From: a virus
Direction: 5' to 3' (one strand)
Length of the DNA: 64,000 nucleotides
IMG/VR virus record: IMGVR_UViG_3300045988_176028
This document shows, piece after piece, positions 7,257-59,789 of this stretch. Below the pieces are notes generated by a model. The model saw only the letters and a program-made list of their open reading frames with translations, searched no databases and was not told where the DNA came from. The stretch's first letter is position 1, and every line of letters starts with the position of its first letter. The position numbers and the translations under genes are program-made.

Positions 7257-7331
7257 TGCTTCATGTCTTGACCGTATTGGCGGCGCAAGCCCTGTTTTTT
7301 TAAGACTGGGGTGAGTCGCCACTTCTTTGAT

Positions 7332-29190: not shown

Positions 29191-30894
29191 CTACAGCATA
29201 CATCCTCGACTCAGCAAGTCACCGACATACTCCATGTCCACTCCACGCTCATTGAACGCCTTACGAGTGTAGACAAGACGATTCATGTTCGCATGGGACA
29301 GAACCCAACGTGCCAGCTCCGCACGTTCTGAATGGTCATTGTCGGCAATCGGCTTGTTACGTAACACAGCACGCTCCAACAGGTTGCGAAGACTCTTGAC
29401 CTCAAGGTAATAGTCCGACTTCAACTTGAACATGTAGCCGTCAGCGTCATAAACCACCACACCCTCACGGTCAGACCAGCGGCGTTCCTCGTCCAACATA
29501 TGCCACAGGCTATCCCGCTGTTCCTCAGTCGAAAAAACAGCCAGAACCTCGGGGCGGGTGAAGAATCTGTCAGTATCAATCAAATCGTCGGCGTCATAGT
29601 CGATATGGAAGTCGGCGGTGTTTTTGATGGCGTGCAGGAACACAAGCCGTGACGTATCATACCTGATGATATGACGGTCGGAATCTTGGTCGATGACTTC
29701 GAAAGCCAAGGTGACGTTAGCGTCATGGGCGATGTTCCACAACGCTTCCTCCTGACCGATGTCCAACGTTTGTTTGAAAAGACGTTGGATAAGATACGAA
29801 TAGTCGGTCTGGCCGCTCTTCGACCAGAAACGCCAAGAACCGTCCTCACGCGCGGACACCAAGCCGAGGAAACCGTTCTCCTTGCGTTCCACGCGCACTG
29901 GAAACTTGAGACGCCTATCAATGTTCTCACGAGTGGTCTGCTCGTTCTCCCCAAGGTTGAAGAACTTCTCGAAACCTCGTGCGACAACCTTACCGTTCCC
30001 GTCAAGGAACAGTCCGCGAGCCTTGCTGGAATACTTGTCCCAACGCTGGTTTTTGAAAGCGTCACGGCTGAAATTGCAAGCGTATACGTCGTTCTCGCCC
30101 TTGACTGGGCGGACGTTCACGTTGTCGGAGTCGCGCATGAGTTCGAGCAGGTTCCTTCCATCCGTGGAGAAGTCGGCAAACCCGTCATTGGCCTTATGCG
30201 CACCCTGCTCCAACCACTTCGAGTAACGGTCGAGAGTCCACTTCCTACCATCTCTGAGCGGCGGCATATCCAACTGGATGGCACCGGTCAAATCACGTCC
30301 CTTTGCCGGTACGGCGGTATAACCGAACTCGGCATTGTCGGGAACACGGGTCTTGTCGTTCCACAGCAATCCCACGTCCACCAGTGCGAGGTCTCCGGAC
30401 GGATTCATATGGTAGGTTCCGTCAACCTTCCTTACATGGATGTTGACCCAACGGCTTTCATGGTCAAGATTCTCATGACAAGTCTCATACTGGGTGCGCA
30501 GATACTCCTCCGGCACACGGTCGTTTTCCGGACGGGTCTGGTTGCGTTCCAGTAGAACGTCCAATGACGTGTTGAACGTCATGGTTTCCACATGTGCCTT
30601 ATGACGGACGGCAATCTGCACCTCGTTCACGCAGAAACGCGGGTTGACGTGCTGGGAGTCGCTGATGACGTTCACACCCTTGGCAAGCAGGTCGCTGATG
30701 ATGGTATGCGCCTGACGGACGAGAATCCTGTTCAACTGTGGATTCATGGTTTCATGCCATGCCTGACGACCTCCCGCCATCATTTCACGCAAACCGTCCA
30801 AGCTGACGATTACCGTATTGGAATCGACATGCTTACGTGCCCAAGTGCTCTTTCCTGAGCCGGGCAATCCTCTGAGAATGGTCAAAGTAGTCAT
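29191..30894 (-). CDS. polynucleotide 5'-kinase (P-loop) fused to Rnl1-like RNA ligase
   Basis: N-terminal LRGLPGSGKSTWARK P-loop. The central VERKENGFLG resembles the T4 Rnl1 KxDG adenylylation motif. 567 aa. Confidence 0.65.
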   Translation of the reverse strand: MTTLTILRGLPGSGKSTWARKHVDSNTVIVSLDGLREMMAGGRQAWHETMNPQLNRILVRQAHTIISDLLAKGVNVISDSQHVNPRFCVNEVQIAVRHKAHVETMTFNTSLDVLLERNQTRPENDRVPEEYLRTQYETCHENLDHESRWVNIHVRKVDGTYHMNPSGDLALVDVGLLWNDKTRVPDNAEFGYTAVPAKGRDLTGAIQLDMPPLRDGRKWTLDRYSKWLEQGAHKANDGFADFSTDGRNLLELMRDSDNVNVRPVKGENDVYACNFSRDAFKNQRWDKYSSKARGLFLDGNGKVVARGFEKFFNLGENEQTTRENIDRRLKFPVRVERKENGFLGLVSAREDGSWRFWSKSGQTDYSYLIQRLFKQTLDIGQEEALWNIAHDANVTLAFEVIDQDSDRHIIRYDTSRLVFLHAIKNTADFHIDYDADDLIDTDRFFTRPEVLAVFSTEEQRDSLWHMLDEERRWSDREGVVVYDADGYMFKLKSDYYLEVKSLRNLLERAVLRNKPIADNDHSERAELARWVLSHANMNRLVYTRKAFNERGVDMEYVGDLLSRGCML

Positions 30895-40956: not shown

Positions 40957-42126
40957 CTACTCGATGATTCTCATTGCCTCATCCCGAATGTTTCGGGCGG
41001 CGTTCACGTCACGGTCATGCAACACTCCGCATGATGGGCACGCCCATTCGCGGATACTTAAATCCTTGACCAGAGGATTCTTGCAACCGCAGTCGTGGCA
41101 TAGTTGGCTGGATGGATACCATTTGTCCACATGAACCAACTGTTTGCCTTGACGGGCGAGCTTGTATTCCAACATGGTGCAGAACATGCCATACCCGTTG
41201 TCCGACGTGCTTTTAGCCAAACCTTTTCTGGCTTTGCGACCATTGGGGAGATAATGTCCCGGATGTTCGTAGTCTGGTTTCGGCTTGGGTTTCTTCATCA
41301 TGCTTTTCATGTTCAGAGTCTCCACGCCGACCATATCGTATGATGCGACAATCCTGTTGGCTTTCTTACGCTGGTAGTCGCGTCTCTGATTGGAGGTCTT
41401 CTCATACAGTCGGCCGACCCGCTTGCACTGTTTACGCCAGTTGGCGGAACCTTTGACCATATGGGAGAGCTTGCGTTGCTCTCTGGCGAGCTTGTCCTGC
41501 ATTTTCCGATAGTATCCCGGATATTCGGCGTGCTCCCCGTCACTGGAAACATACAGGCCGTGAGACGCGTAGTCCAATCCGACAGTCTTCACCGGCTTCA
41601 CTTTTTCGGGTATTTGGGTCTCGTACTCGAAAAGGATTGTCGCGGTGTATCTTCCGGAAGGGCAATGCTCCACGGTGACGGATTTCAGTTTCCAATCGTC
41701 GGGGATGTGCTTGTGTTGGCGTACCGCCAACCATCCGAGCTTGGGTAGTTTCAACCTCCTTGTCTTGTCATCCAATCTGATGTTGCCGTGGGACAGATTC
41801 GTCGTGTATGTCTTCCTGCCCCGACGTTTCGACTTGTATTTCGGAAAACCTGTTTTCCTGTCCTCGAAGAACCTCTTGTACGCCTTCTCCAATGCGAGTT
41901 GCGCGTTGCAAAGAGCGAAGCCATCCACCTCGCGCAGGAACGGATACGTGTCCTTGTACAAGGCTGGGGTGGGATAGCATGACTCCCAAGTGGTCTGATA
42001 GTGGGCGATGCGGGTTTCGAGCATGAGGTTGTATACGAACCTGACGCAACCGATGGTACGGTTTATCCGCCGTGCCTGTTCTTCGGTGGGGTAGGCGCGG
42101 AATCTGACCGCCGTATGGGCTTTCAT
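40957..42126 (-). CDS. tnpB: TnpB (IS605 OrfB family) RNA-guided nuclease
   Basis: 389 aa. RFRAYPTEEQARRINRTIGCVRFVYN N-terminus, VGLDYAS, VGVETLN, CHDCGC...CPSCGV, DRDVNAARNI. Confidence 0.9.
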   Translation of the reverse strand: MKAHTAVRFRAYPTEEQARRINRTIGCVRFVYNLMLETRIAHYQTTWESCYPTPALYKDTYPFLREVDGFALCNAQLALEKAYKRFFEDRKTGFPKYKSKRRGRKTYTTNLSHGNIRLDDKTRRLKLPKLGWLAVRQHKHIPDDWKLKSVTVEHCPSGRYTATILFEYETQIPEKVKPVKTVGLDYASHGLYVSSDGEHAEYPGYYRKMQDKLAREQRKLSHMVKGSANWRKQCKRVGRLYEKTSNQRRDYQRKKANRIVASYDMVGVETLNMKSMMKKPKPKPDYEHPGHYLPNGRKARKGLAKSTSDNGYGMFCTMLEYKLARQGKQLVHVDKWYPSSQLCHDCGCKNPLVKDLSIREWACPSCGVLHDRDVNAARNIRDEAMRIIE

Positions 42127-44360: not shown

Positions 44361-47300
44361 TTGACCGCAAAAACCAATATCCGCTATCGCGTGGGAGCTG
44401 ACGTAGGACTCAACAGTCTAGGATTCTCGGCAATCCAACTCGACGCCAACGGCAACCCAATCACACTACTCAAAACCCTCAGCTACATTCACGACGGCGG
44501 AGTAGACCCAACCCAAAACAAGTCCGGCACCACCCGCAAGGCCATGGCCGGAATCGCCCGACGTACCCGCAACATGCGCAAACGCCGCCGCCACCGTCTC
44601 AACCAACTCGACCGTCAGCTCTACCAACTGGGATATCCGGTGGACGAAGTGCCGGAAAGCGAACACGGACTCTACGAATACTGGAACGTCCGTTCCGCAT
44701 TGGCGACCGCCTACGTCCCCGACAAGGACAAGCGTGACCGGATGATGGTCATGGCTATCCGACATATCGCACGCCATCGCGGTTGGCGCAACTCCTATAG
44801 TCGGGTCGAAACCCTGTTCGAGGACGTGGAGCCGTCCGACCAGTACAAGGATTTGAAACAGCGAGTGGAGACCCGTCTTGGAATGAAACTAGACGAGGAT
44901 ATGACCCCGGCGCAACTCGTCGCATTGACGCTTTCAGACCGTGATGAGAACTTCATGAGGGTTCGTACCAGCACAAAATACGGTGAGGGTGTTCTGCCAA
45001 GCCGTCTCATGCAGTCCGACAATGCGCGTGAACTCCGACGCATCTTCACCGTCCAGCAAGTGCCCGAGGACGTTTGGAAGCCCATCCTGCGTACCGTGTT
45101 CCACTGCGCATCCCCCAAGGGTTCCGCAGAGAAGCATGTCGGAACAGACCCGCTCGACCAGACCCAGAAGAGAGCGTTGAAGGCCAGCATCGCCTTCCAG
45201 AAGTACCGTATCCTCAACGTCATCACCAACCTGCGTATCCGACGCAAAGGCGAAGCATCCCGACCGTTGACCGTCAACGAGAAACAGGATGTATACGAAC
45301 TGCTCACCACCGCCAAGGAAGACTTGGAATGGTTGGACGTGTGCGCCGTGCTTGACATCGAACGCAACGAACTCAAAGGCGTCGGCACCCTCACCCATGA
45401 CGGGGAGGAAAGAATCGGTAACAAGCCACCCGTCTTGGACACTGTCATCCGACTCCACGGCATCAAAAACACCAAGCTCCGCAAGATGATGGACGCATGG
45501 TGGAACACGGCCACCGAGACCGAACAGGCCGCGATGATTCGACTCCTGTCCAACACGGTTGACTTGGACAAGGTGCGCGACCTCATCGAATACGCCTCCC
45601 CCATCGAATTCATCGACGGGTTGGACGAAGACCTGCTCACCCCGTTGGACTCCATCAGTCTTCCAGTCGGACGTGCCGCCTACTCCGAAAAAACCCTCAC
45701 CCGACTGTCCAAACGCATGTTGGAAACGGAAGATGATTTGCATTATGCGATTCGCCACGAGTTCAACGTGCCCGCAGACTGGAAGCTTCCGGTTCCACCT
45801 GTTCAGGAGCCGACCGGCAATCCTGCCGTTGACCGAGTGTTGAAAGCGTTCAACCGTTTCCTCAGCCAGTGCGAACAACAGTATGGCATTCCGGAAAGCA
45901 TCGCCATCGAAACCACGAAGGAATCGTTCTCGTCCATCGCGTTCGGACGCACGCTCGACTATGAGCGCCGTCAACGTCGGGACAAGGACAATCAGACGCG
46001 TGCCGCAATCCGTGAGGATATGAGGAAGCAACTGTCCAACGGCGGAAGCTTCAAAGTCCACGACTACGACATTCGCCGTTGGGAAATCGTCCAATCGCAG
46101 AACAACACATGCCTGTACTGTGGTGCGACCAGTCCACGATTCAGTTTCGATAAGTCGGAACTCGACCATATCGTTCCCCGTCGTGGTGTCGGTTCGGACA
46201 GCAAACGCACCAACATGGCCGCAGTATGCCCCGAATGCAATGCCAACAAGTCGAACATTCCGTTCGCCGTCTGGGTGCATTCCGACTATGCGAAAGCGCA
46301 CGGCATCACCATGAATGATGTCATCGCACGAGTGAACCAGCTGATGTTCCCACCATCCATGAACCGCAAGCAGGTCAGTCAGGTGAAAAAGGCCATCATC
46401 AGCCGACTCAAGCAGACCGAACAGGACGAGCCGTTGGACAATCGTTCCATCGAATCCGTGGGCTGGATGGCCGACGAACTCCACCGCCGACTCGATGGAC
46501 GATACGCCAACAAAACGGTGAAAGTGTCCACGTTCCCCGGCTCCATCACCTATGAGGCGCGACGCGCTTCCGGCATCGACGGGCAAATCCACTTCATCGG
46601 CGCACAGTGGAAGACCCGACTCGACCGCCGACACCATGCGGTTGACGCTTCGGTCATCGCCATGATGAACCAGAGTGTCGCTCTCCGTCTTGCCGAACGC
46701 CACTATCTACGCGAATCCCAACGCCTGTGCGGGACCCCGTTCGGACAGGCGGACTGGAAGCAGTATCCGAATGAGAACACTCCCGGCTACGACCAATACC
46801 AGCAATGGAGCGGACAGATGAAGAATCTGCTCCACCTGTTGAACAAGGGTTTGGACGAGGACACCATTCCGGTCGTTCGGAGCCGCCGCCTCCGCTTGGG
46901 CAACAGCACGGCGCATGATGCGACGGTGAAACCGTTGCAATACGTGCGACTGGGAGACGCCATGCCGACCAGTCTCATCGACCATGCGCTCACCCCGCAA
47001 GTGTGGAAGGCATTGACCGGATTGTCGGATTATGACCCTCAGAATGGTCTGCCCGCTAATCCGAAACGTGTCATCACAGCCTTGGGTGAAGTATGCCATG
47101 CGAAGGATGAAATCGGTTTCCTTCCGGGCAACAATGCCCAATTGTTCGTCAACGGTGGAGCCGCCGATATTGGCGGAACCATCCATCATGCCCGTATCTA
47201 CCGTTGCGAACAGGTGTTGAAGAACGGGAAACGCAAGACGTTCTATGGCATGGTGCGCGTGTTCCAATGCGATTTGATGAAACGCAGGAAGAACACCGAC

Positions 47301-47687
47301 CTGTTCCGAACCCCGTTACATCCCGCCGACGTGTCCATCCGGTATGCGGACGGCAAGGTCAGGGACGCCATCCGACAGGGACACGCAACCTGCATCGCAC
47401 GACTCACCGTCAACGATGAAATCAAGTTGACACCTGAGATGATGAGGGACATGTGTCCTGAATATGCGAACATGTTCCACACAGATTCCGGCGTCGAACG
47501 ACGATTCATCGTGGCCGGCTTCCCCTCCCCTATCCAGTTCAGACTAGTTCCCTCCGTCATTGCAGAAGAAGGATTAAGTAAGATGGTTGAACAAGGTTTG
47601 GAGGTTCCCCCCAAGGTCGAGAAGATGTTCAAACTGCACACCTTCGTTCCAGTGGTCAATAAGATTGGACATGTTTTAGAGCAGTAA
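44361..47687 (+). CDS. cas9: Cas9, compact type II-C-like (1108 aa)
   Basis: RuvC-I VGADVGLNSLGF, Arg-rich bridge RRTRNMRKRRRHRL, HNH ELDHIVPRRG...CPECNANKSN, RuvC-III RRHHAVDASVIAM. TTG start. Confidence 0.92.
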   Translation: MTAKTNIRYRVGADVGLNSLGFSAIQLDANGNPITLLKTLSYIHDGGVDPTQNKSGTTRKAMAGIARRTRNMRKRRRHRLNQLDRQLYQLGYPVDEVPESEHGLYEYWNVRSALATAYVPDKDKRDRMMVMAIRHIARHRGWRNSYSRVETLFEDVEPSDQYKDLKQRVETRLGMKLDEDMTPAQLVALTLSDRDENFMRVRTSTKYGEGVLPSRLMQSDNARELRRIFTVQQVPEDVWKPILRTVFHCASPKGSAEKHVGTDPLDQTQKRALKASIAFQKYRILNVITNLRIRRKGEASRPLTVNEKQDVYELLTTAKEDLEWLDVCAVLDIERNELKGVGTLTHDGEERIGNKPPVLDTVIRLHGIKNTKLRKMMDAWWNTATETEQAAMIRLLSNTVDLDKVRDLIEYASPIEFIDGLDEDLLTPLDSISLPVGRAAYSEKTLTRLSKRMLETEDDLHYAIRHEFNVPADWKLPVPPVQEPTGNPAVDRVLKAFNRFLSQCEQQYGIPESIAIETTKESFSSIAFGRTLDYERRQRRDKDNQTRAAIREDMRKQLSNGGSFKVHDYDIRRWEIVQSQNNTCLYCGATSPRFSFDKSELDHIVPRRGVGSDSKRTNMAAVCPECNANKSNIPFAVWVHSDYAKAHGITMNDVIARVNQLMFPPSMNRKQVSQVKKAIISRLKQTEQDEPLDNRSIESVGWMADELHRRLDGRYANKTVKVSTFPGSITYEARRASGIDGQIHFIGAQWKTRLDRRHHAVDASVIAMMNQSVALRLAERHYLRESQRLCGTPFGQADWKQYPNENTPGYDQYQQWSGQMKNLLHLLNKGLDEDTIPVVRSRRLRLGNSTAHDATVKPLQYVRLGDAMPTSLIDHALTPQVWKALTGLSDYDPQNGLPANPKRVITALGEVCHAKDEIGFLPGNNAQLFVNGGAADIGGTIHHARIYRCEQVLKNGKRKTFYGMVRVFQCDLMKRRKNTDLFRTPLHPADVSIRYADGKVRDAIRQGHATCIARLTVNDEIKLTPEMMRDMCPEYANMFHTDSGVERRFIVAGFPSPIQFRLVPSVIAEEGLSKMVEQGLEVPPKVEKMFKLHTFVPVVNKIGHVLEQ

Positions 47688-47708
47688 CCACCGCTTCTAA
47701 TCGTTTCT

Positions 47709-47766
47709 AAAAAGGAAAGGGTCTACCAAAAACCATCTAAGGTTATCAGTAGACCCTTTCCTTTTT
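47709..47766 (+). terminator. 18-bp perfect inverted repeat (bidirectional terminator/attenuator) between cas9 and cas1
   Basis: AAAAAGGAAAGGGTCTAC-N22-GTAGACCCTTTCCTTTTT, immediately followed by AGGAGG and the cas1 ATG. Confidence 0.7.
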
Positions 47767-47777
47767 AGGAGGTTGAT

Positions 47778-48668
47778 ATGGCAAAAGGGTGGCGAGTCAT
47801 CGACTGCACCGCAATGACCGGCAGACTGACCTACAAGCGCGGACAACTCGTCGTGGAACACCACGATACGGAGACGCGGATACCGTTGGCCGATACGGCG
47901 GTGCTGCTGCTCGGTATACAAACAACCGTCTCCACAGCACTATTGCAGCAATTGGCGGTCTTCGACGTGGAAGTGCTCATCTGCCAATGGAATCAGACAC
48001 CAATCGCGGCAATGCAATCATGGAACAAACCCAACACCCGTTCCGCCGCCCGTCAGAACGCACAACAGGAAATGAGCCTACCGGCAAGAAAAGCCGCATG
48101 GCAGAAAATCATACGAGCGAAAATACTAGGACAATCCCACGTACTCGACAAACTCAACTTGGACGGAGGGGAACTCTTAAGAAGTCTAGCCGTCCAAGTC
48201 CACTCCGGCGACCCGAACAACATCGAAGGACAGGCGGCACGCGAATACTGGCATCACATGTTCTCTGAAGAACAATTCCGCCGATTCCCCGGATATGGCG
48301 AAGGGCACAACGCTCAACTCGATTACGCGTACACGGTACTGCGTGGATTCCTGATTAAGTCCATCTGCACAGCGGGACTCTCCCCCACCATCGGCATACA
48401 TCACCATTCAGCCAGCAACTATTTCTGTCTGGCAGACGATTTGATAGAACCGTTCCGACCGGCCATCGACTACCAGATAAGCCAACTACCGGACGGACCG
48501 TTGGACTCGGAAATGAAACAGCAGATAGTGCTGTCCGTCAACAGCCAATTCAACCCAAAAGAACTAACCATCCCATCACTGGTGGACGAATTTTGTGGAC
48601 AATACGCGCAATACTGCGAAGGCTGGCTGGACAAACTACCCGTCCCCGTCTTCGGAAAAAGGCGCTAA
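47778..48668 (+). CDS. cas1: Cas1 integrase (type II)
   Basis: 296 aa in the position after cas9. The N-terminal beta-domain and C-terminal helical domain pattern is typical of Cas1. AGGAGG RBS. Confidence 0.88.
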   Translation: MAKGWRVIDCTAMTGRLTYKRGQLVVEHHDTETRIPLADTAVLLLGIQTTVSTALLQQLAVFDVEVLICQWNQTPIAAMQSWNKPNTRSAARQNAQQEMSLPARKAAWQKIIRAKILGQSHVLDKLNLDGGELLRSLAVQVHSGDPNNIEGQAAREYWHHMFSEEQFRRFPGYGEGHNAQLDYAYTVLRGFLIKSICTAGLSPTIGIHHHSASNYFCLADDLIEPFRPAIDYQISQLPDGPLDSEMKQQIVLSVNSQFNPKELTIPSLVDEFCGQYAQYCEGWLDKLPVPVFGKRR

Positions 48669-48670
48669 AA

Positions 48671-49012
48671 ATGAAGAGAGATAAGGATAACGGCATGTGG
48701 ACGCTGGTCATGTACGACCTACCCATTACAACGAGAGAGGATGCGGGAGCCGCGAACAGATTCAACCATCTACTCTCTGATTTAGGTTTCGTTCGAGTGC
48801 AATATTCCGTCTATGCAAGATATACCCCCACCCAATCAGGCGGTCGTTCTGCGTTAAAGTATATTCAAGCCGGACTACCTCCCCACGGCAACGTGCGAGT
48901 ACTCTGCGTAACGGACAATCAATGGTCTGATTCACTGAAGTACATCGATAAAAAACAGCAGACCACAGACGAACAGCCGGGGTTACTGACGCTTTTTGAC
49001 GACGAAGAATAG
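48671..49012 (+). CDS. cas2: Cas2
   Basis: ATG 48671 lies 3 nt after the cas1 stop. MWTLVMYDLPITT...VQYSVYAR is the ferredoxin-like Cas2 core. Confidence 0.85.
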   Translation: MKRDKDNGMWTLVMYDLPITTREDAGAANRFNHLLSDLGFVRVQYSVYARYTPTQSGGRSALKYIQAGLPPHGNVRVLCVTDNQWSDSLKYIDKKQQTTDEQPGLLTLFDDEE

Positions 49013-49051
49013 TTTAAAAACGTTGATATGAAGCCTTTTGCCCAAACTCGT

Positions 49052-49716
49052 AGTTTGAGCAAAAGGTAATACGACATATATTCAAACCTGTTCGCCATAT
49101 GCTATCGTAAGAGTGAGTTTGAGCAAAAGGTAATACGACATATATTCAAACTGATGTCGCACGCGGATTAACGCTCTGGAGTTTGAGCAAAAGGTAATAC
49201 GACATATATTCAAACCACAAGCACACTGAATGTACGTCGTTGAAGTTTGAGCAAAAGGTAATACGACATATATTCAAACTTCAAAAATGGCTATTTTCCA
49301 ACGTTTTAGTTTGAGCAAAAGGTAATACGACATATATTCAAACTGTCCAGTGATTTCCCTCTCCTCACCGGAGTTTGAGCAAAAGGTAATACGACATATA
49401 TTCAAACTAAAAATGAAAGGATTGAAGAAAACATAAGTTTGATTAAAAGGCAATACAACATATATTCAAACCAAAACGGGAACAGGCATTGAACGGTGGG
49501 AGTTTGGGCAAAAGGTAATACGACATACATTCAAACTGCGAGTTTCCCTTCAGTGTGATTAAAAGGCAATACGACATATATTCAAACTGAAGCATTCAGT
49601 GCTTACGCGTCCGAAAAGTTTGAGCAAAAGGCAATACGACATATATTCAAATCAGGCTGCATATTTTCGTCAAAATCGACAAGTATAAATAAGGAAAATA
49701 CGACATATATTCAAAC
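49052..49716. CRISPR. CRISPR array: 10 full 36-bp repeats plus 1 degenerate terminal repeat, 10 spacers
   Basis: The + strand repeat is AGTTTGAGCAAAAGGTAATACGACATATATTCAAAC, starting at 49052, 49116, 49180, 49244, 49308, 49372, 49436, 49501, 49552, 49617 and ~49680. Spacers are 28-29 bp except one of 15 bp (49537..49551). Repeats 1-6 are identical and 7-11 are progressively mutated. The anti-repeat suggests minus-strand crRNA. Confidence 0.95.
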
Positions 49717-49847: not shown

Positions 49848-50053
49848 GTTTGGCGTTTGACATGGCTTGGTTGTTTCCCATCAGTGAGTTCATGTCGTGA
49901 ACACTGGCATGTATGCGTGAGTCAAGAGGGTGCAAGGCATACGGCTTGCTGACAGTCCTTCATGGATTTCAGGATTGTCGTCCATCGCGCATGTGAGAGT
50001 CATGCCATGGATTGTCCCACGAGCTTTAGGGGTATAAAAAGTGTGGGACTTTG

Positions 50054-50125
50054 TGCGGGAGACGAGATTCGAACTCGCGATACTTGCTTGGAGGGCAAGG
50101 GTGATGACCTTTTCACTACTCCCGC
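50054..50125 (-). tRNA. tRNA-Gly(UCC)-like, atypical C33
   Basis: Hand-folded cloverleaf, 72 nt. Acceptor GCGGGAG/CTCCCGC, T-loop TTCGAAT, anticodon loop CCTCCAA. No encoded CCA. Confidence 0.7.
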
Positions 50126-50244
50126 AATAGGAGGGGATGGATTGTGTTTGCGGGCTGGAAAGCACTACATGCAGAGAAAAAATGTTTACGACCATTCCAA
50201 ACTATTATGGGATGGAAGACTCGCAATCAGAAACCCATTCCCAG

Positions 50245-50332
50245 CGGAGTCGGAGGGATTCGAACCCTCGAACCGTATGAAACGGTTAACACCTTAGCAG
50301 GGTGCCCCTATCGGCCACTCAGGCACGACTCC
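50245..50332 (-). tRNA. tRNA-Ser(GCU)
   Basis: 88 nt with a long variable arm AACCG-TTTCATA-CGGTT. Anticodon loop CTGCTAA, T-arm GAGGG-TTCGAAT-CCCTC. Confidence 0.8.
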
Positions 50333-50371
50333 GAAGTTTCGACACGCCAAAAACAGCCGGTCGAAACTTAG

Positions 50372-50442
50372 CTCCCCATGATGGACTCGAACCACCTCTA
50401 AAGGTTCCAAAGACCCGTGTGCTGCCATTACACTAATGGGGA
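50372..50442 (-). tRNA. tRNA-Gln(UUG)
   Basis: 71 nt. U1-A72 and G73, anticodon loop CTTTGGA, T-loop TTCGAGT. One mismatch at the 27-43 pair. Confidence 0.65.
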
Positions 50443-50474
50443 ATGTGCAGACCGTTTTGACGGCCCGCGAATAA

Positions 50475-51320
50475 TTATTTGGATTTTGAAATCAGCTTGT
50501 CAATGTCCGCGCCCAACTGCCTTAACTGGGCGAAAGAGTTGGCGACGTTGTTTTGCGCCGTTTCCTCTCTCTGCTGAGCGGCTTCCATCAGCTTCTTGCT
50601 GTTCGCATCCAATTCGGCGGCATGCTGTTCAGCCTTCTTGGTTCGGAGGTCGATTTCCTGTGACGCCTTGTCCAAACGGTTGACTGCGTCAGCTTCCGCC
50701 TTGCTGATAATCTGTTCGGCTTGTTTCTTGGCCGCGTCCAACTGGATGGCAACCTTATCGTCGGTTTCCTTTTTCAGTTTGGCGCATTCCTGTTCAAGCT
50801 TCTGCTTCTTATCCTGTGCGGCGGTCATCATCTGTCTGGTGGTTTCCGTCGCGGAGTCGAGCCGCTTCTGGGATTCATCCTTGGCCTGTTGGAGAATCTG
50901 TTCGGCTTGCGTGCGGGCCTGTTCCAGCTCCTCACGTTTCTTCGACTCGTAAGTGTTTTTCAACGTTTGGAATTCTTTGCCGAGGCTGGTGCCTAATTCC
51001 TGCATCGGGTTTTCCGACGCTTGACGGGCGTCCTGCAAGTCGGCGTTCAACCGTTCAATCTGCTGGCGGAGGGATTCAGCTTCCTGCTCCCGTTTGCCGA
51101 GTTCGGATTGACGCTTGTCCAAGACCATGTTTTTTTCCGTTAACTGGCGTTGCAGATTCCAAATCTGTGTTTCCAACCCGTTCACGTACTGTTCAACGGA
51201 ATCCTTGCGATAACCGTTGAATCCGGTGGGGAGGTTGAGTGGTTGTACCTGTGGCTGGGTCATTCCTTCCACGGTGAGAGCGTGGGAGGAGATGACCCGT
51301 GTTTCATCAGACATGGTCAT
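50475..51320 (-). CDS. DivIVA-domain coiled-coil protein (281 aa)
   Basis: GAAGGA RBS precedes ATG 51320 (the track ORF extends spuriously over tRNAs). FNGYRKDSVEQYVNGLETQIWNL resembles the DivIVA N-terminal motif. The rest is K/E/Q-rich coiled coil. Confidence 0.65.
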   Translation of the reverse strand: MTMSDETRVISSHALTVEGMTQPQVQPLNLPTGFNGYRKDSVEQYVNGLETQIWNLQRQLTEKNMVLDKRQSELGKREQEAESLRQQIERLNADLQDARQASENPMQELGTSLGKEFQTLKNTYESKKREELEQARTQAEQILQQAKDESQKRLDSATETTRQMMTAAQDKKQKLEQECAKLKKETDDKVAIQLDAAKKQAEQIISKAEADAVNRLDKASQEIDLRTKKAEQHAAELDANSKKLMEAAQQREETAQNNVANSFAQLRQLGADIDKLISKSK

Positions 51321-51355
51321 TTTGAGTTCCTTCTTTTCTGGTTGAAAAACACGAG

Positions 51356-51428
51356 AGCCTAGAGCGGGGGTCGAACCCGCGACCTTCTGTTCCGGAGACA
51401 GACGCTCTATCCACTGAGCTATCAAGGC
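51356..51428 (-). tRNA. tRNA-Arg(CCG)
   Basis: 73 nt. D-arm GCTC-AGTGGATA-GAGC, anticodon loop CTCCGGA, T-arm GCGGG-TTCGACC-CCCGC. One U-U mismatch in the acceptor stem. Confidence 0.75.
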
Positions 51429-51485
51429 GATGGGGCGAAACCTATGGGGAATCGCCACTGTAAAGGAAGAACCATTCATGGTTCG

Positions 51486-51568
51486 TGCTTCGGGAGGGAA
51501 TCGAACCCTCACGTCAATATGACAAAGCTTTTTGAGAGCTTCGCGTTTACCTGTTTCGCCACCGAAGC
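51486..51568 (-). tRNA. tRNA-Leu(CAA)
   Basis: 83 nt with a long variable arm. Anticodon loop CTCAAAA, T-arm GAGGG-TTCGATT-CCCTC. Confidence 0.8.
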
Positions 51569-51686
51569 GGGATGAGCCTCCGCAGAGGCTCAGCAGACCG
51601 TTCCCGCGACTGGGCGGGTCGGCTGAAAACTGGAACCGCCATGAGACGGCTCCGAAGCCTTCTCGAACAACCTGTAAGAGAAGTAG

Positions 51687-51757
51687 TATGTCACGCTGGA
51701 ATCGAACCAACATCTACGGTTTTGGAGACCGTGGCTCTACCGTTGAGCTAGTGACAT
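51687..51757 (-). tRNA. tRNA-Trp(CCA)
   Basis: 71 nt. A1-U72, anticodon loop CTCCAAA, T-loop TTCGATT. Confidence 0.75.
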
Positions 51758-52022
51758 ATGGGGTGGGCTACCAACGTAGACGCCACCCTCTCGTTGTCCT
51801 GTAGTTAGCGTCCAAGTCCAACTCGATAGACGCGGCATGGCGGGTTGGATTTTACCGCCAACGGCAAGGTCGTGGGCTGCTAAGTACCCCGTTTCACCGT
51901 TCTTCCCCTTCGGTCATCAACCACCTGATTAAGGCAGGGAAACTCTTATCCTCCACAAGACCATGTAGGATTATTCGAGCAATGCCATCAGTTTCACGGA
52001 CAGCTACCTCCATGAAACCTAG

Positions 52023-52096
52023 CACCCAAGGTTGGAGTCGAACCAACGACGTCCGGTTTAGGAAACCGGCGCTCTATTCCGCTGAGCTACAAGGGT
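52023..52096 (-). tRNA. tRNA-Arg(CCU)-like with two U-U mismatches in the acceptor stem
   Basis: 74 nt. TAGCTCAGCGGAATAGAGC D-arm, anticodon loop TTCCTAA, T-arm GTTGG-TTCGACT-CCAAC. Acceptor ACCCTTG/CTTGGGT. Confidence 0.6.
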
Positions 52097-52316
52097 GTAT
52101 GTCTCCGTTCCGCGAGGACACCCGCAACGCGTCTTCCGGATTGGAGTCATTCACATCAGCCGTTCGCTACTTACCATTGTTGCGGGGCAATGGCTTTCTC
52201 TAATGGGATGATGGTGTTTTACGCGCATTCCACGCGGACGCTTTTAATTGCCCATCCAATACGACGAGCCACAGGATTACACTCCCGATTTCCCGCAGTT
52301 ACGCCAACTGCGGTCG

Positions 52317-52389
52317 TGCCCCCCGTGGGATTCGAACCCACAACCCACGACTTAAAAGGACGCTGCTCTAACCATTGAGCTAGAGGGGC
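52317..52389 (-). tRNA. tRNA-Lys(UUU)
   Basis: 73 nt. Anticodon loop CTTTTAA, T-arm GTGGG-TTCGAAT-CCCAC, acceptor GCCCCTC/GGGGGGC. Confidence 0.75.
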
Positions 52390-52459
52390 GGAACAGGAGG
52401 TGAAGGAACGAAAACCCACCTCCCGCTTGGATTAGTTAAAGGAGAACCATCAAGGTTCG

Positions 52460-52543
52460 TGCTCCGAGAGAGATTTGAACTCTCACACCTTTTCAGGTAA
52501 AGCATTTTGGGTGCTTCGCGTCTACCGATTTCGCCATCAGAGC
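52460..52543 (-). tRNA. tRNA-Leu(CAA)-like, atypical C33
   Basis: 84 nt with a long variable arm. Anticodon loop CCCAAAA, T-loop TTCAAAT. It has the same 3' flank, CGAACC, as the other Leu tRNA. Confidence 0.65.
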
Positions 52544-52808
52544 GTCGCGCGATTGAGGGACGTGCGTTTTCGTTCTTACAGAACGACCCATTGATTTTCG
52601 TACCACCCTCCCCGCTTACAAATCAACAAAAGTCAGAGATTGGAGGAAACTGATTTTTTGTTTACAAAGTTTTTCCTTCAAGTTTGGAGAGTCTGTTTTG
52701 CAGGAGTCGCTTAGCACGCACATCAGTTTCCTCTATTTAGAGTTTGGATAAAAGCCCGTAAGGCAATTATCCAAACATTGTTTTGAATACGGTATGCATT
52801 CAAAATCG

Positions 52809-53177
52809 TGGAGCCGGAGGGAATCGAACCCTCGTCCTTGAAAACGTTGATGATGTTTTCTACATGTTTAGCCATCTCATTTATATATGTTGAAAGTTCC
52901 AGTCGAAGAGGCACCCCGGAACAGTTTTGCAACTCAGTCATGAAACGATGAACAGTTGCCGTTCACCGAGTTTTTGCTGTCCTTTCTTTTTCAGAATCGC
53001 CTTACAGCAAATCAGTGACCCTGTTCTTCCTTCACCGTGTTTCAGGCGGCGAGCTGGAAGTTACGCGAAGAATTCGTCTTGGCGTTTATTGTTTGACATG
53101 GATTGATGACGGTTGTCCACGTCAGCCTCCGACATGCTTGCATTATCTTGATTTTCAAGTCGAAACCTGTCGGCCCC
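52809..53177 (-). ncRNA. ssrA: tmRNA (SsrA), tag AKTNSSRNFQLAA
   Basis: 5' end GGGGCCGACAGGTTTCGAC. 3' end GAGGG-TTCGATT-CCCTC-CGGCTCC-A. The acceptor stem has a G3-U70 pair. Internal frame GCC AAG ACG AAT TCT TCG CGT AAC TTC CAG CTC GCC GCC TGA lies at 53083..53042. Confidence 0.85.
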
Positions 53178-53228
53178 AAAATGCCGTCTTCCTTCCGGTT
53201 TTCCGTCCGAGCTTCCCATAGGTGTGGT

Positions 53229-53318
53229 TCAGAACCAATAGAATGGTTGGCTGGGATTTCCAGCCGGAAGGTTGACAGCGGTTTTGCCTGTCATGGTTTT
53301 GTCTTCAAGCGTTTTCAT
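53229..53318 (-). CDS. possible 29-aa micro-ORF upstream of the tmRNA
   Basis: AGGAGAAGC RBS and ATG 53318 give MKTLEDKTMTGKTAVNLPAGNPSQPFYWF. No other support. Confidence 0.25.
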   Translation of the reverse strand: MKTLEDKTMTGKTAVNLPAGNPSQPFYWF

Positions 53319-53624
53319 GCTTCTCCTAGAACTTCCAATTGAACTGGTTTTCTGGTTTTGGATAGGCGTGATAGTTCCTGAAGATTCGACCATGATGGGC
53401 AAGTCTTCATATCGAACATGATTTGATGGGCTTTAAGTCCTATCGAACCATGTTTCCTTATCTCTATTCATTTTTCAAACGGGCGGCAACATTCAGGGAG
53501 TGTTCCTTACTGGGTAAGGTCTTTACCCCGGTTGCCTTGGTGACTGTTCCAGTAGCGGGCTGGATATGAGAAGCGGTCTTCTCACAGTCTGTTCGCGCGT
53601 GATGTTTTTATTGAACCTCGTTTG

Positions 53625-53773: not shown

Positions 53774-54046
53774 ATGCAGTCCAAGCAAATACGAGAAGCA
53801 ACCACAGTCGCATATATAGAAGACCAGCTCAAGTCGGAAGACCCCACTCTCATACAGTCGGCCACGGGGAATCTAGCCAGACTGTATGGAATGACCACGC
53901 TCTCCCAACTGACCGGTTTGGCGAGGCCATCCCTCTACCGAAGCCTATGCGGTCAAGGAAACCCATCCTTCCAAACCATGTGCAGGGTATTGGACGCCAT
54001 GGGGTACACAGTCACGGTGAAGCGTAAGGAGACGGAACATGAGTGA
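53774..54046 (+). CDS. HigA-family HTH 'addiction module antidote' protein (TIGR02684-like), no adjacent toxin
   Basis: ARLYGMTTLSQLTGLARPSLYRSLCGQGNPSFQTMCRVLDAMGYTV closely follows the family signature (...GLSRESLYKALSGEGNPSFDT...). It overlaps the repA start by 8 nt. Confidence 0.7.
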   Translation: MQSKQIREATTVAYIEDQLKSEDPTLIQSATGNLARLYGMTTLSQLTGLARPSLYRSLCGQGNPSFQTMCRVLDAMGYTVTVKRKETEHE

Positions 54047-55094
54047 CAGGCAAGTGGAACAGAACGCTCTAGACATTGACATACCCGGCATGGAGTTGGA
54101 TGTTCGACGGGTCAACCTGTTGGACGATATAGAAGCCCGCGAGCCGAACAGTATGGAAATATGGTATGGGCATTCCATTCTCACCGCCACACTGTTTCCA
54201 CCAGCCCAACCGTCCGATGATGTGGATTTCGTCAGCAAGTCGAACGGACGGTTGGAATACATGCTTGAAGCTGGCGTGACGGGTGATGGGGATGATAGGA
54301 AACGCCGGTTCCCGTTCGGCAAATATCCGAGACTGTTGATGGCTTGGATGGCTAAGCAGATTCGTGCGGCGAAAGGCCATAAGACGAGGAATGTTGACCC
54401 GGAGACGAAGACCATCACCATTCCAAGCATCTACCAGTTGTGTGAGGAAATGGGATTGCCGCATGGCGGGCGTACCGCGAAGAGCGTGCAGGAACAGTTG
54501 GAACTGTTGTTGGCTTGCCGTATCAGTATTCGCGCGTCCGGCACGGGCAAGGGGTTGAATGTGAGGGATACGGCCTATCTGCCTATCGTTCAGGCCGTGC
54601 GCATTATCAATGATGAGAAGAATGTGGGCTATTCCGGTGCCACGTTCCGTCTGACCGATGAAGTGTATGAACGGTTGAGTCGTGAGTCGGCTCCGTTCGA
54701 TACGAGAGTGTCCACTTACCTTTTGAAAGGCAGGTCGGTCATGCCTTACGACATTTACATTTGGCTGACTGGCAGTATGAAGAATCTTCGCCGTGACCTT
54801 CCGGTGAGTTGGGATTGGCTGTATGAACGGTTCGGAGACCAGATTGCGGTCAAGAAGTCTTTTCGGCGCATGTTCCGTCAATCGTTGGAGAAGGTCAAGA
54901 AGGTGTATCCGGGGTTGAATGTTGAGTGTCCAACGTATGAGGATTACATTATTCTGCATCCGAGTCCCACGTCGGTTCCTACCCGTGCTGTCCGTGAGGT
55001 TGAGGTGGGTGCTAATGGGGATGTGTTCGAGGTGGCTTTGCATTCGTTGCAATCGGTTCAACGGAAAGGTGTACGAAAGGCCACGTCAGATTGA
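54039..55094 (+). CDS. repA: plasmid replication initiator, RepA_C (PF04796)-like, second copy
   Basis: 351 aa. FPFGKYPRLLMAWMAKQI hallmark and later PYDIYIWLTGSM. Iterons lie immediately downstream. Confidence 0.7.
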   Translation: MSDRQVEQNALDIDIPGMELDVRRVNLLDDIEAREPNSMEIWYGHSILTATLFPPAQPSDDVDFVSKSNGRLEYMLEAGVTGDGDDRKRRFPFGKYPRLLMAWMAKQIRAAKGHKTRNVDPETKTITIPSIYQLCEEMGLPHGGRTAKSVQEQLELLLACRISIRASGTGKGLNVRDTAYLPIVQAVRIINDEKNVGYSGATFRLTDEVYERLSRESAPFDTRVSTYLLKGRSVMPYDIYIWLTGSMKNLRRDLPVSWDWLYERFGDQIAVKKSFRRMFRQSLEKVKKVYPGLNVECPTYEDYIILHPSPTSVPTRAVREVEVGANGDVFEVALHSLQSVQRKGVRKATSD

Positions 55095-55101
55095 GTTGAC
55101 C

Positions 55102-55519
55102 GTGGCCTTTCGGACACCTTGGAGAGTATTGGTGTCTGAAAGGCCATGTGTGGGCGGGTGTCTGCGTGGCTTTTCGGACACCTTTCGCATGGCTTTTCAA
55201 ACACCTCCCAACGGGTTGAACGGTTTCTCGACGTGGCCTTTCACGCACCCTCGTATACGCTACGGATTGCACGCGCCTTTCCAGCTTTAATTTATCCACT
55301 AGTTTTTCGTTGGAATTTCAACCATTCCACACGCTTATCCACATTTCCACAGGCAGAACGTCAAACATTCCGTGGACTAACAGGCACCTTTAGTGGCGTT
55401 TCAAACACCATGACGATTATGAATCATGCCGGACATGGACTATCAAACACCATCAGCATGGACTATCGAACACCCTTTTATGGGGTTTCCGACACCTTTC
55501 CGTGGACTAACAGGCACCT
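55102..55519. repeat. iteron field of candidate oriV-2
   Basis: At least 9 copies of rTGG(c/a)yTTTCrrACACC, for example at 55102, 55131 (inverted), 55165, 55188, 55232, 55393, 55434, 55457 and 55481. CGTGGACTAACAGGCACCT occurs twice (55371 and 55501). Confidence 0.7.
55292..55343. promoter_or_regulatory. two DnaA-box-like sites in the AT-rich core between iteron clusters
   Basis: TTATCCACT at 55292..55300 and consensus TTATCCACA at 55335..55343. Confidence 0.55.
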
Positions 55520-55606
55520 CGCATGGTAGAAAAACCGTTACGGGAGTAAGGCTCAACCGGCATGGTTATATATTATATGCTCATAGTTTCTTATAGTTTC
55601 TTATCA

Positions 55607-58391: not shown

Positions 58392-58415
58392 CGGCTTTCC
58401 CTTTCTAATATCAGG

Positions 58416-58646
58416 TCAGGAGAGTTTGACCAGAATTCCGTAAGCGATGATGAGAACGAACCAGACGACAGCCGCCACTACCGTCCAACGGTTCAGGTTC
58501 TTTTCCGCCACGCCCGAGCTTCCCGCCGAACCTGTCAACGATTCAGCGAAATTCGAGAAACCGCCTCCCTCGCCTTTGTGCATGAGAATGAGGGGAACGA
58601 GCATGAGACTCAACACGGCGATGAATCCAAGAAGGATATGTTTCAT
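58416..58646 (-). CDS. secG: SecG-like preprotein translocase subunit (76 aa)
   Basis: AAAGGAG RBS precedes ATG 58646. LMLVPLILMHKGEGGGFS...GVAEKNLNRWTVVAAVVWFVL parallels actinobacterial SecG (..LLH..KGGGLS...EKNLDR.T..). Confidence 0.7.
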   Translation of the reverse strand: MKHILLGFIAVLSLMLVPLILMHKGEGGGFSNFAESLTGSAGSSGVAEKNLNRWTVVAAVVWFVLIIAYGILVKLS

Positions 58647-58648
58647 AA

Positions 58649-59065
58649 TTACTGCTCCTTTGTTTTGTTGTAGAAGACCAGACTTTTCCATCCGCTCGCA
58701 AGCCGCCAATGTTCGCCCGGCAACCGCATAAGCAACGGTTGCAGGATGCCTTCGACGATGAGCTGGTCTAGTGACCCGTGTACGGCGACCGTCCGTCCTC
58801 GCACGATGGTGCCGTCCACGGTGACGGCCTTGACCATGCGGCTGTCCAAAACCTTCGGTTCGACGTTCTCCCAGTCGAGGTCGGCGGGCTGGTCTTCCTG
58901 CGAGTCCAAGGCGGCTTTAGCGAGACGGCGGAACGAGTCATGTATCGCGTCCATCTGCCCGTCCCACAAGTCTCGTATCTGTTCTTCGCTCGGATTGAAG
59001 TCGGCCCAGTTGGTTTGCGCGGCGAAGACCGCAATTGCGGTTTTTTCGATGCGTTCATCCGGCAT
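58649..59065 (-). CDS. hypothetical protein (138 aa)
   Basis: Lies between the SecE-like and SecG-like genes. Confidence 0.5.
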   Translation of the reverse strand: MPDERIEKTAIAVFAAQTNWADFNPSEEQIRDLWDGQMDAIHDSFRRLAKAALDSQEDQPADLDWENVEPKVLDSRMVKAVTVDGTIVRGRTVAVHGSLDQLIVEGILQPLLMRLPGEHWRLASGWKSLVFYNKTKEQ

Positions 59066-59327
59066 AGAATTTTCCTTCCTTACTGCAATCCAACACCTGC
59101 AATGCGCTCACATGGTCGGCTTCCTCCAATAGGCCGGACGGGGCTTTCATGATGATGGGCACCATGACTCCCATGTAGACGCCTATCGCCCCACCGGGAG
59201 CTATGATGATGGTTCCGTCCACGACGGTGCCGTTGTCGAATCGGGCGATGACGCGTTGCCCTTCGAGTTCGGTCGTTGTGGCATGCCGCCAGTCCACGGG
59301 ATTGTAGACGATGCCTTCGCCGCCCAT
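59055..59327 (-). CDS. hypothetical protein (90 aa)
   Basis: ATG 59327 in a TGATG junction with the SecE-like stop. Confidence 0.45.
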   Translation of the reverse strand: MGGEGIVYNPVDWRHATTTELEGQRVIARFDNGTVVDGTIIIAPGGAIGVYMGVMVPIIMKAPSGLLEEADHVSALQVLDCSKEGKFYAG

Positions 59328-59578
59328 CAGCCGAACACCCACAATGTCAGCTTGCCCAGTCCGAAGTCCATTCCTGAGACAAGCGCCATGAGCAGCAGCA
59401 CGAAGATTCCGGACGCGACGCACCAGCCCGCCCATTCGCGGACGGTGGGCGTGACTACCTTGCGGATTTCGGCCACAACCTGTTTGACGAAACGGATGAC
59501 GCCGAGGAATCCTTGACCGATTCTGACGAACGGATTGTTTTTCCCATCGGCAATGACGGGCGTGGCTTTCTCAACCAT
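59327..59578 (-). CDS. secE: SecE-like preprotein translocase subunit (83 aa)
   Basis: GGAAGGA RBS. VVAEIRKVVTPTVREWAGWCVASGIFVLLLMALVSGMDFGLGKLTLWVFG parallels actinobacterial SecE (..ELRKV.WP.R.E......VV........D......LWVFG). Confidence 0.7.
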   Translation of the reverse strand: MVEKATPVIADGKNNPFVRIGQGFLGVIRFVKQVVAEIRKVVTPTVREWAGWCVASGIFVLLLMALVSGMDFGLGKLTLWVFG

Positions 59579-59789
59579 AGATTTCCTTCCATTGAATCAG
59601 ACCGTCGATAATTTTCGCGGCGGTTCGATTGTCCAAATATTTCTTATTCAAGTCTTCCTTATAGCGGACTACGGGAGGGCAGTTTTCGAGGTTTTTCACG
59701 TTATTAAGGTCGGACTGGTCGGTGAGTTTGAGAATTAGTCGAATCTGAGCTTCCGTGGCCTTGCGTTTCTGTCCCGCGTAAATCATCAT
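59571..59789 (-). CDS. hypothetical protein (72 aa)
   Basis: Operon context. Confidence 0.45.
   Translation of the reverse strand: MMIYAGQKRKATEAQIRLILKLTDQSDLNNVKNLENCPPVVRYKEDLNKKYLDNRTAAKIIDGLIQWKEIYG

Follow-up and report, generated by a model that had tools for sequence, protein, structure and literature searches.

The DNA analysed here, hereafter the window, is the 64,000-nucleotide (nt) stretch of IMG/VR virus record IMGVR_UViG_3300045988_176028, and its minus strand carries a gene for a transfer-messenger RNA (tmRNA), ssrA, between an array of tRNA genes and a plasmid-type replication initiator gene (Table 1). An earlier note, made from the sequence alone, had described here an element-encoded minus-strand tmRNA of about 369 nt. 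ARAGORN called a tmRNA at 52808-53177 (-), with the tag AKTNSSRNFQLAA and its stop codon at gene positions 95-136 (window 53083-53042), and the Rfam model RF00023 matched 52806-53177 (-) over model positions 1-374 of 374 with 118.7 bits, far above the gathering score of 47 (E = 9e-46). The two calls agree with each other and with that description, and the ends differ by 1-3 nt at the 3' end only. The 5' end, which reads GGGGCCGACAGGTTTCGAC on the minus strand, the acceptor stem with its G3-U70 pair, the T-arm and the tag frame were found exactly as described when the sequence was read, and the pseudoknots and the tag architecture hold on folding. G3-U70 is the identity pair for alanine. The tRNA-like domain has all that is expected of a one-piece tmRNA, namely, a 7-bp acceptor stem, G3-U70, the discriminator A (52809) and the T-arm loop, and the rest of the molecule has the long helix H2, four pseudoknots (PK1 to PK4) and the internal tag frame. 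CCA is not encoded, the gene ending in ...CTCCA-CGA. The window holds a real and structurally intact tmRNA gene.

Homologues gathered from contigs of this element and its relatives, in metagenomes and in IMG/VR, form two lineages. The window belongs to type A, in which the further copies have 96%, 84-85% or 80% identity to the window tmRNA. Type B, found on pMP7017 (the megaplasmid of Bifidobacterium breve JCM 7017) and also on plasmids of B. longum, has tmRNAs ~50% identical to that of the window by multiple alignment and ~64% identical by optimised pairwise alignment. The window tag is encoded by the codons GCC AAG ACG AAT TCT TCG CGT AAC TTC CAG CTC GCC GCC TGA (53083-53042). The same tag is present in all 14 near-identical copies (12 metagenome contigs and 2 IMG/VR contigs). 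In the more diverged type-A copies the codon changes ACG>ACU and CGU>CGC are synonymous and amino acid replacements are single only, either N>D or A>V (AKTDSSRNFQLAA, AKTNSSRNFQLVA). The type-B tags are likewise 13 codons long (ANTVSSSRFTL[A/V/T]A and ANTVSSQRFMLAA), and the penultimate residue varies among relatives, the ends being LAA, LVA and LTA. Judged by these substitutions, the tag frame behaves as a coding sequence.

The fold was examined for covariation with a structure of 74 pairs in 12 helices, written by hand from the Rfam alignment because RNAalifold alone missed the long-range helix H2 and the pseudoknots. The count took in the acceptor stem, the T-arm, hairpin H5 and H2 (in three segments), together with the two stems each of PK1 and PK3 and the first stems of PK2 and PK4. 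In six type-A tmRNAs, standard pairs occupied 95.9% of the cells, and 11 pairs with changes on both sides were observed as against 4.3 ± 1.5 in shuffled alignments, none of 500 shuffles reaching that number. As a control, sliding the 3' partners by 1-3 columns left at most one both-sided change. These changes are spread over the molecule: two pairs changed on both sides in PK1 (helices 5 and 6), four in the counted stems of PK2, PK3 and PK4 (helices 8-11), and one compensatory pair was found in H5, while all seven acceptor pairs are invariant among the six copies. The second stems of PK2 (UGCUGU/ACAGCA) and PK4 (GCC-UCU/AGAUGGC, or CCCUAU/AUAGGG in the copies L046 and L047) were read by eye and kept out of the count because the automatic alignment misaligned them. 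Between types A and B the counting was confined to three helices, H2a and PK1 being one register off in that alignment. There, G3-U70 is invariant in 11 of 11 plasmid copies, acceptor pair 6-67 is compensated from C-G in type A to U-A in type B, and compensation is also seen at two pairs of H2 and at three of the T-arm's five. The pattern of change indicates that the fold and the tag frame are kept by selection and that the gene is not a decaying copy. Minor strain-specific differences were also seen. At window position 53015 (tmRNA position 162, PK2 stem 1) the window has A, which makes an A-C mismatch there, and G is found in all of the five other type-A copies except L048; that copy also has A, with a compensating U opposite. 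Following H5 (3' strand, 53034-53035), the window tmRNA is without two U residues that are present in other copies.

For comparison with the chromosomal gene we used the 26-nt att core published for the 3' terminus of the tmRNA gene of B. breve, Bifidobacterium prophages being known to integrate at tmRNA 3' ends (PMC6109161). A search of IMG/VR with this core gave a prophage contig (L147) that keeps 337 nt of the host tmRNA gene including the tag, and searching again with the tag region brought up nine chromosomal-type genes of full length (395 nt) in DNA of 57-63% GC. These contigs were assigned to Bifidobacterium by the exact att-core match and composition only, and the genes are not that of the host strain itself. 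A full-length tmRNA from the first att-core search (L148) was rejected as not from Bifidobacterium, its organism having 65-69% GC. The nine chromosomal-type genes are 85-100% identical to one another, all nine have the 12-residue tag AKSNRTEFALAA, and none encodes CCA. Chromosomal and plasmid genes have the same architecture, with the T-loop GGUUCGAUUCC, G3-U70, AAUAA ahead of the resume codon and no encoded CCA, and their tags both start with AK[S/T]N and both end in F-x-L-A-A. This common start and end of AKTNSSRNFQLAA and AKSNRTEFALAA bears out the earlier description of the tag as actinobacterial in style. The differences are in length (395 nt in the chromosomal gene and 372 nt in the plasmid gene), in the sequences of the acceptor and T stems, and in the block CGGAGGC..GGACAACCGTCATCAA spanning PK1 and the resume site, which both plasmid types have in common and the chromosomal gene does not have. 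Since the chromosomal-type tmRNA is only 57-64% identical to either plasmid type, which is about the distance between the two plasmid types, the plasmid gene would represent an old plasmid lineage and not a recent capture or an integration scar. The shared blocks, the 13-codon tag and the common gene order suggest that the plasmid backbone acquired the gene once, long ago, and not by several separate captures.

The replicon that carries the gene was characterized from its initiator and from exact-sequence look-ups. In tblastn the initiator, a RepA_C protein, has 56% identity to the product of the corresponding rep gene of pMP7017, and 53% to its counterparts on five B. longum megaplasmids. The repeats that follow it are presumed to be the replication origin, and several of them match the GGnCnAnnR core set out for binding of pMP7017 RepB. 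Six window proteins were looked up by exact sequence and each was found in hundreds to thousands of blocks of the collection, mostly from human gut metagenomes; the identical initiator alone occurred in 1,547 blocks and at least 1,000 contigs. The longest contigs with identical window proteins are 214-230 kb, and none is above 1 Mb. In NCBI and UniRef the proteins identical to those of the window are named as from Bifidobacterium adolescentis. Thus, the claim that the tmRNA is element-encoded stands: the context is a megaplasmid of ~220 kb with RepA_C, iterons, a second Rep, TnpB insertion sequences and Cas9, whose proteins never occur in identical form on contigs larger than 1 Mb. On this evidence we take the replicon to be a ~220 kb B. 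adolescentis megaplasmid that is a distant lineage of the bifidobacterial megaplasmid family. No description of a B. adolescentis megaplasmid was found in the searchable literature. Among species-representative genomes, relatives of the RepA protein were found in Bifidobacteriaceae only, and initiators 53-63% identical to it (L020-L026) are present in seven other species, namely, Bifidobacterium callitrichidarum, B. miconisargentati, B. rousetti, B. santillanense, B. aerophilum, B. callitrichos, and Pseudoscardovia suis, whose hosts, going by the species names, we take to be other animals, including primates and a bat. The conserved tmRNA pattern had no match in 185,579 species-representative genomes, and therefore the element is absent from those representatives. 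At the nucleotide level the window matched plasmid records only in 115 nt of TnpB, and the tmRNA with 24 kb around it matched nothing in 50,697 phage records other than 67 nt of a tRNA. The kinship with pMP7017 is visible at the protein level only.

The 150-nt leader upstream of the tmRNA gene is more conserved than the tmRNA itself, being 93-97% identical where the tmRNA is only 80-86% identical, and its fold has a z-score of -3.1 against shuffles. A 21-amino acid (aa) open reading frame (ORF), MTGKTAVNLPAGNPSQPFYWF, is present in five of five variants, and the window version is 29 aa long with an AGGAGA ribosome-binding site. No conservation of the leader was found in the type-B plasmids. 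The leader is a candidate promoter or leader sequence, small protein gene or other RNA. Downstream, the nine tRNAs are Leu-CAA (two copies), Lys-UUU, Arg-CCU, Trp, Arg-CCG, Gln-UUG, Ser-GCU, and Gly-UCC, and the set varies from copy to copy of the element. The manA-like RNA motif within the array matched the full-length model with 39.6 bits and E = 7e-8, which is below the gathering score of 55.2. The type-B arrays of B. longum contain a tRNA with the anticodon CUA, which ARAGORN labels 'Pyl' (L016 7986-8060, L029 3529-3603, L034 6579-6653) and which is possibly an amber suppressor; it is not present in the array of the window.

The flanks of the window have genes for cell-wall hydrolases, SSB, and sortase/pilin, as in Gram-positive conjugative plasmids, as well as a YafQ-type toxin gene, and the window also encodes a sortase and a large SdrD_B surface protein. 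One of its TnpB proteins, of 389 aa, occurs in identical sequence in this element alone and never on contigs of chromosomal size. A GmrSD-like nuclease gene and a Lar-like anti-restriction gene lie near the tmRNA block. The fusion of polynucleotide kinase and RNA ligase is possibly an RNA-repair partner of the translation genes, the association being inferred only. In the CRISPR locus, the spacers next to cas2 vary among metagenome copies while the distal spacers are in common, which suggests ongoing acquisition; the spacers had no match in phage records, nor in the loci examined except for the arrays themselves.

Table 1. Positions of the tmRNA gene, its parts and the other features of the window
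Feature	Position	Strand	Basis and remarks
One-piece tmRNA gene (ssrA)	52806..53177	-	372 nt including 3 nt past the discriminator; ARAGORN, Rfam, covariation
Acceptor stem, 5' strand GGGGCCG	53171..53177	-	Pairs with CGGCTCC at 52810-52816; 7 bp
T-arm GAGGG-UUCGAUU-CCCUC	52817..52833	-	Rfam and sequence; GGUUCGAUUCC-type loop
Pseudoknot PK1, CGG/CCG and 9-bp stem UGACGUGGA/UCCAUGUCA	53094..53131	-	Hand-built structure, helices 5 and 6
Pseudoknots PK2 (53023-52975), PK3 (52965-52929), PK4 (52922-52871)	52871..53023	-	Counted stems and reading by eye
Hairpin H5	53035-53050	-	Tag stop codon in its loop
Tag frame: GCC resume codon, AKTNSSRNFQLAA, UGA stop	53042..53083	-	ARAGORN; AAUAAAC precedes
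Leader, 150 nt, upstream of tmRNA	53178..53327	-	Conservation, fold, ORF
Array of nine tRNAs, directly downstream of tmRNA	50053..52543	-	ARAGORN, Rfam
manA-like RNA motif	51829..52000	-	RF01745; between tRNA-Trp and tRNA-Arg(CCU)
Coiled-coil ORF, 281 aa	50475-51320	-	Amid the tRNA array, same strand; weak DivIVA-like matches only
RepA_C initiator, orthologue of pMP7017 RepB	54039..55094	+	Pfam PF04796; 860 nt from tmRNA
Iteron-like repeats of ~20 nt, CGTGGnnTTTCnnACACCTT	55068..55520		Ten direct, two inverted; directly downstream of initiator
Small SecG and SecE paralogues	58400-59600	-	~50% identical to those of pMP7017 and B. longum megaplasmids
Type II CRISPR-Cas locus, complete	44361-49716		cas9 (1108 aa), cas1, cas2 (48695-49012), 11 repeats of 36 nt; array abuts tRNA array
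Polynucleotide kinase/T4-type RNA ligase fusion	29191..30894	-	Pfam AAA_33 and RNA_lig_T4_1; PHROG RNA ligase/polynucleotide kinase
Thymidylate synthase	27997-28854	-	Side by side with the kinase/ligase gene
Second RepA_C gene	4060-4965		35% identical to the other pMP7017 rep gene
TnpB genes (IS200/IS605 OrfB), three	2081-3499 (-), 7327-8820 (+), 40957-42126 (-)		

Based on these findings we propose, with a probability of roughly 0.6, that the window encodes a functional tmRNA in a translation-support block beside the basic replicon of a pMP7017-related B. adolescentis megaplasmid and that the benefit it would confer is extra rescue capacity. The block would comprise the conserved leader, the tmRNA, the nine tRNAs, and the manA-like RNA, next to the RepB-type initiator and its iterons. 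Transcription of the tmRNA would go along with that of the tRNA array or precede it, the RNase P of the host would process the transcript, the host CCA-adding enzyme would supply the CCA end, and the host alanyl-tRNA synthetase would charge it by way of G3-U70. Host SmpB and EF-Tu would bring it to stalled ribosomes, where AKTNSSRNFQLAA would be added to the stalled product and its LAA end would direct that product to host proteases. What cells with the plasmid would most likely gain is additional or independent ribosome rescue, which may offset the load of ~220 kb of foreign genes with 53% GC, as against ~57-63% around the chromosomal tmRNA loci, and also the non-stop mRNAs that would arise from the plasmid's own toxin-antitoxin nucleases, such as the YafQ-type toxin in the flank. 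The earlier suggestion of an element that manipulates ribosome rescue, or serves as its backup, agrees with all of the evidence and is not demonstrated by it.

Several points weigh against this proposal. Neither a sigma-70-like promoter nor an intrinsic terminator was found right beside the tmRNA gene, the nearest promoter-like site being ~460 nt upstream, and the window copy has one A-C mismatch in PK2. The benefit to fitness is speculation, as it also is in the proposal of the authors who described pMP7017. In the seven species with related initiators no tRNA or tmRNA gene was found within 10 kb of the initiator; thus, the block is not essential to this type of replicon and would be an accessory of the human-gut lineages seen. 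As to smpB, for which the earlier note had suggested looking elsewhere on the replicon, none appeared when the genes called from ~6 kb left to ~10 kb right of the window were all assigned to Pfam families, nor in a tblastn on the window, a search that spans ~80 kb of the ~220-kb element, so that an smpB gene elsewhere on it is possible. The complete sequence of pMP7017 also has no smpB, no Bifidobacterium plasmid is among the smpB matches in PLSDB, and the best 80 of 278 smpB matches in IMG/VR are largely on prophage-end contigs. Presumably, the plasmid tmRNA uses the SmpB of the host.

An alternative that we rate as distinctly less probable, yet the strongest of those considered, is that the block serves counter-defence or self-protection, the tRNA array, the tmRNA and the kinase/RNA ligase together keeping translation going when tRNAs or mRNAs are cut. 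The cutting would be done by anticodon nucleases of the host or of competitors or by toxin-antitoxin RNases, on entry of the plasmid or in its conflicts with phages and other plasmids, and the tmRNA would free ribosomes stalled on cleaved messages. This overlaps the proposal of extra rescue capacity, differing in that the benefit would lie in conflict and not in load, and the two are not exclusive. The nine tRNAs in the block, with a set that shifts between copies, would fit such a role, and so would the kinase and T4-type RNA ligase fusion, an RNA ligase gene also flanking the array in pMP7017 and in B. longum p1. The YafQ toxin, GmrSD-like nuclease, Cas9, and Lar-like anti-restriction genes are nearby, and tRNA arrays of mycobacterial plasmids are treated as putative anti-defence systems (PMC12803027). 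However, no anticodon nuclease or specific target was identified, and in the window the RNA ligase gene is 22 kb away from the tmRNA. A bolder idea, which we regard as doubtful, is that the block on the origin side is a self-contained translation island of two deeply split lineages that is without an SmpB of its own and serves in conflict, that the leader is its switch, and that its carrier is a hitherto undescribed and very common Cas9 megaplasmid. If so, ribosomes would be kept running during plasmid entry, toxin activation or phage attack.

It appears unlikely that the role of the plasmid tmRNA lies in the tag itself. It would then compete with the chromosomal tmRNA and put AKTNSSRNFQLAA in place of AKSNRTEFALAA on rescued products, thereby changing adaptor recognition, the rate of degradation or the regulation of particular proteins. 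The plasmid tag is one residue longer than the chromosomal tag and differs from it at most internal positions, and the penultimate residue is variable in relatives, as described above; in E. coli such changes at the tag end tune the degradation rate. On the other hand, the window tag retains the canonical L-A-A end of the host tag, and no adaptor gene was seen on the element. Very unlikely is that the gene belongs to a huge phage, a tmRNA being then a phage gene of the kind carried by jumbo phages. In IMG/VR, contigs of the element as long as 204,736 bp are indeed filed among viral genomes, and huge phages do bear tmRNAs, tRNAs and CRISPR-Cas (PMC7162821), but the 15 window proteins scanned with PHROGs gave no match to a capsid, portal, terminase or tail family, nor was there any phage structural family in the Pfam calls over ~80 kb of the ~220-kb element. 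Moreover, the replication module is of plasmid type with iterons, the phage records gave no nucleotide match to the tmRNA, the flank genes are typical of Gram-positive conjugative plasmids, and the closest relatives are pMP7017, which is conjugative by experiment, and the related B. longum megaplasmids. From the ~80 of ~220 kb read, we regard the viral label as an artefact of classification. Hardly to be credited is the notion of a passive and functionless relic, that is, a piece of chromosome or an old attB of the prophages that integrate at tmRNA 3' ends in Bifidobacterium (PMC6109161), and with it the earlier idea of a former integration target carried along, because Pfam found no integrase family in the neighbourhood, the tmRNA 3' end has no second copy in the window (at up to 3 mismatches its other matches are the tRNA-Ser T-arm and a coding region only) and departs from the published att core at several positions, and the gene is of full length, keeps its position in two lineages, has only 57-64% identity to the chromosomal gene, and has compensatory changes that uphold a fold apparently under purifying selection.

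A tmRNA is normally encoded by a single chromosomal gene, and stable second copies on plasmids are rare. That a plasmid tmRNA exists at the same position in pMP7017 was already known; what is new is its presence in a second and very common megaplasmid lineage. The window copy shows that pMP7017 is no isolated case among bifidobacterial megaplasmids: the plasmid tmRNA is old and is under purifying selection in two lineages that are ~50-64% identical, here on an element that is widespread in human gut assemblies. The two lineages offer a tractable system for extra ribosome rescue on a large plasmid, since there are two tag variants in nature, the host genus can be cultured and one relative is conjugative and open to manipulation. 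The findings also point to a widespread B. adolescentis megaplasmid with a Cas9 system of its own.

Among other mobile carriers, cluster C mycobacteriophages have a tmRNA together with a tRNA array. They and the huge phages are virions, some with SmpB, whereas the window element has the replication features of a plasmid, and the part of it that was examined shows no structural genes. The Curtobacterium megaplasmids pCPAA3 and pS16 are, like the window element, large actinobacterial plasmids, with a RepA_C initiator ~31% identical to that of the window, and pCPAA3 carries a tmRNA (PMC10832533). Unlike the bifidobacterial megaplasmids, those of Curtobacterium (545-567 kb) have their own smpB (pS16, L060 5968-6441; CP018784.1), and in pS16 no tRNA or tmRNA gene was found beside the rep gene. 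Clustered tRNA genes on large actinobacterial plasmids are a feature that the window element has in common with the mycobacterial plasmids whose tRNA array units are discussed as putative anti-defence systems (PMC12803027).

The closest known system is pMP7017, in which the tmRNA, with the tag ANTVSSSRFTLAA, lies between the rep gene and the tRNA array and is highly transcribed by RNA-seq; it was published in 2024 by Dineen et al. and presented as the first tmRNA on a Bifidobacterium plasmid (PMC10832533). The tRNA array of pMP7017 also contains a manA RNA motif (PMC10832533), and its RepB, encoded beside the tRNAs, is the essential initiator and binds to iterons located on the downstream side of its gene (PMC8313286). 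RF00023 scored 78 bits on the pMP7017 tmRNA and 87 bits on a B. longum plasmid tmRNA. In pMP7017, the B. longum megaplasmids and the window alike, the tmRNA has a RepB-type initiator on one side and a same-strand tRNA array on the other. The window and pMP7017 share the succession from tRNA array through tmRNA, rep and iterons to SecG/SecE, and in the B. longum plasmids it runs from tRNA array through tmRNA and rep to SecG/SecE. The tmRNAs of pMP7017 and the window are both one-piece molecules with a 13-codon tag ending in L-A-A and without an encoded CCA, on plasmids in which no smpB was found. About 18-20 window genes have homologues in pMP7017 with 27-64% identity (the part of the element read does not reach the conjugation and partition genes of pMP7017). 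The differences are considerable: the tmRNAs are ~50-64% identical, depending on the alignment method, with AKTNSSRNFQLAA in the one and ANTVSSSRFTLAA in the other, the window has nine tRNAs as against 18-24 in pMP7017-type plasmids, its CRISPR system is type II (Cas9) and not type I-E, the element is ~220 kb with 53% GC as against 190 kb with 57% GC, and B. adolescentis is named as its host, where the others have B. breve or B. longum. The window initiator, with 56% identity to that of pMP7017, is under the 70% cut-off for initiators called pMP7017-related (PMC10832533), and so belongs to a distant lineage. Read from sequence in this way, the window gene is an orthologue, in another lineage, of the published pMP7017 tmRNA.

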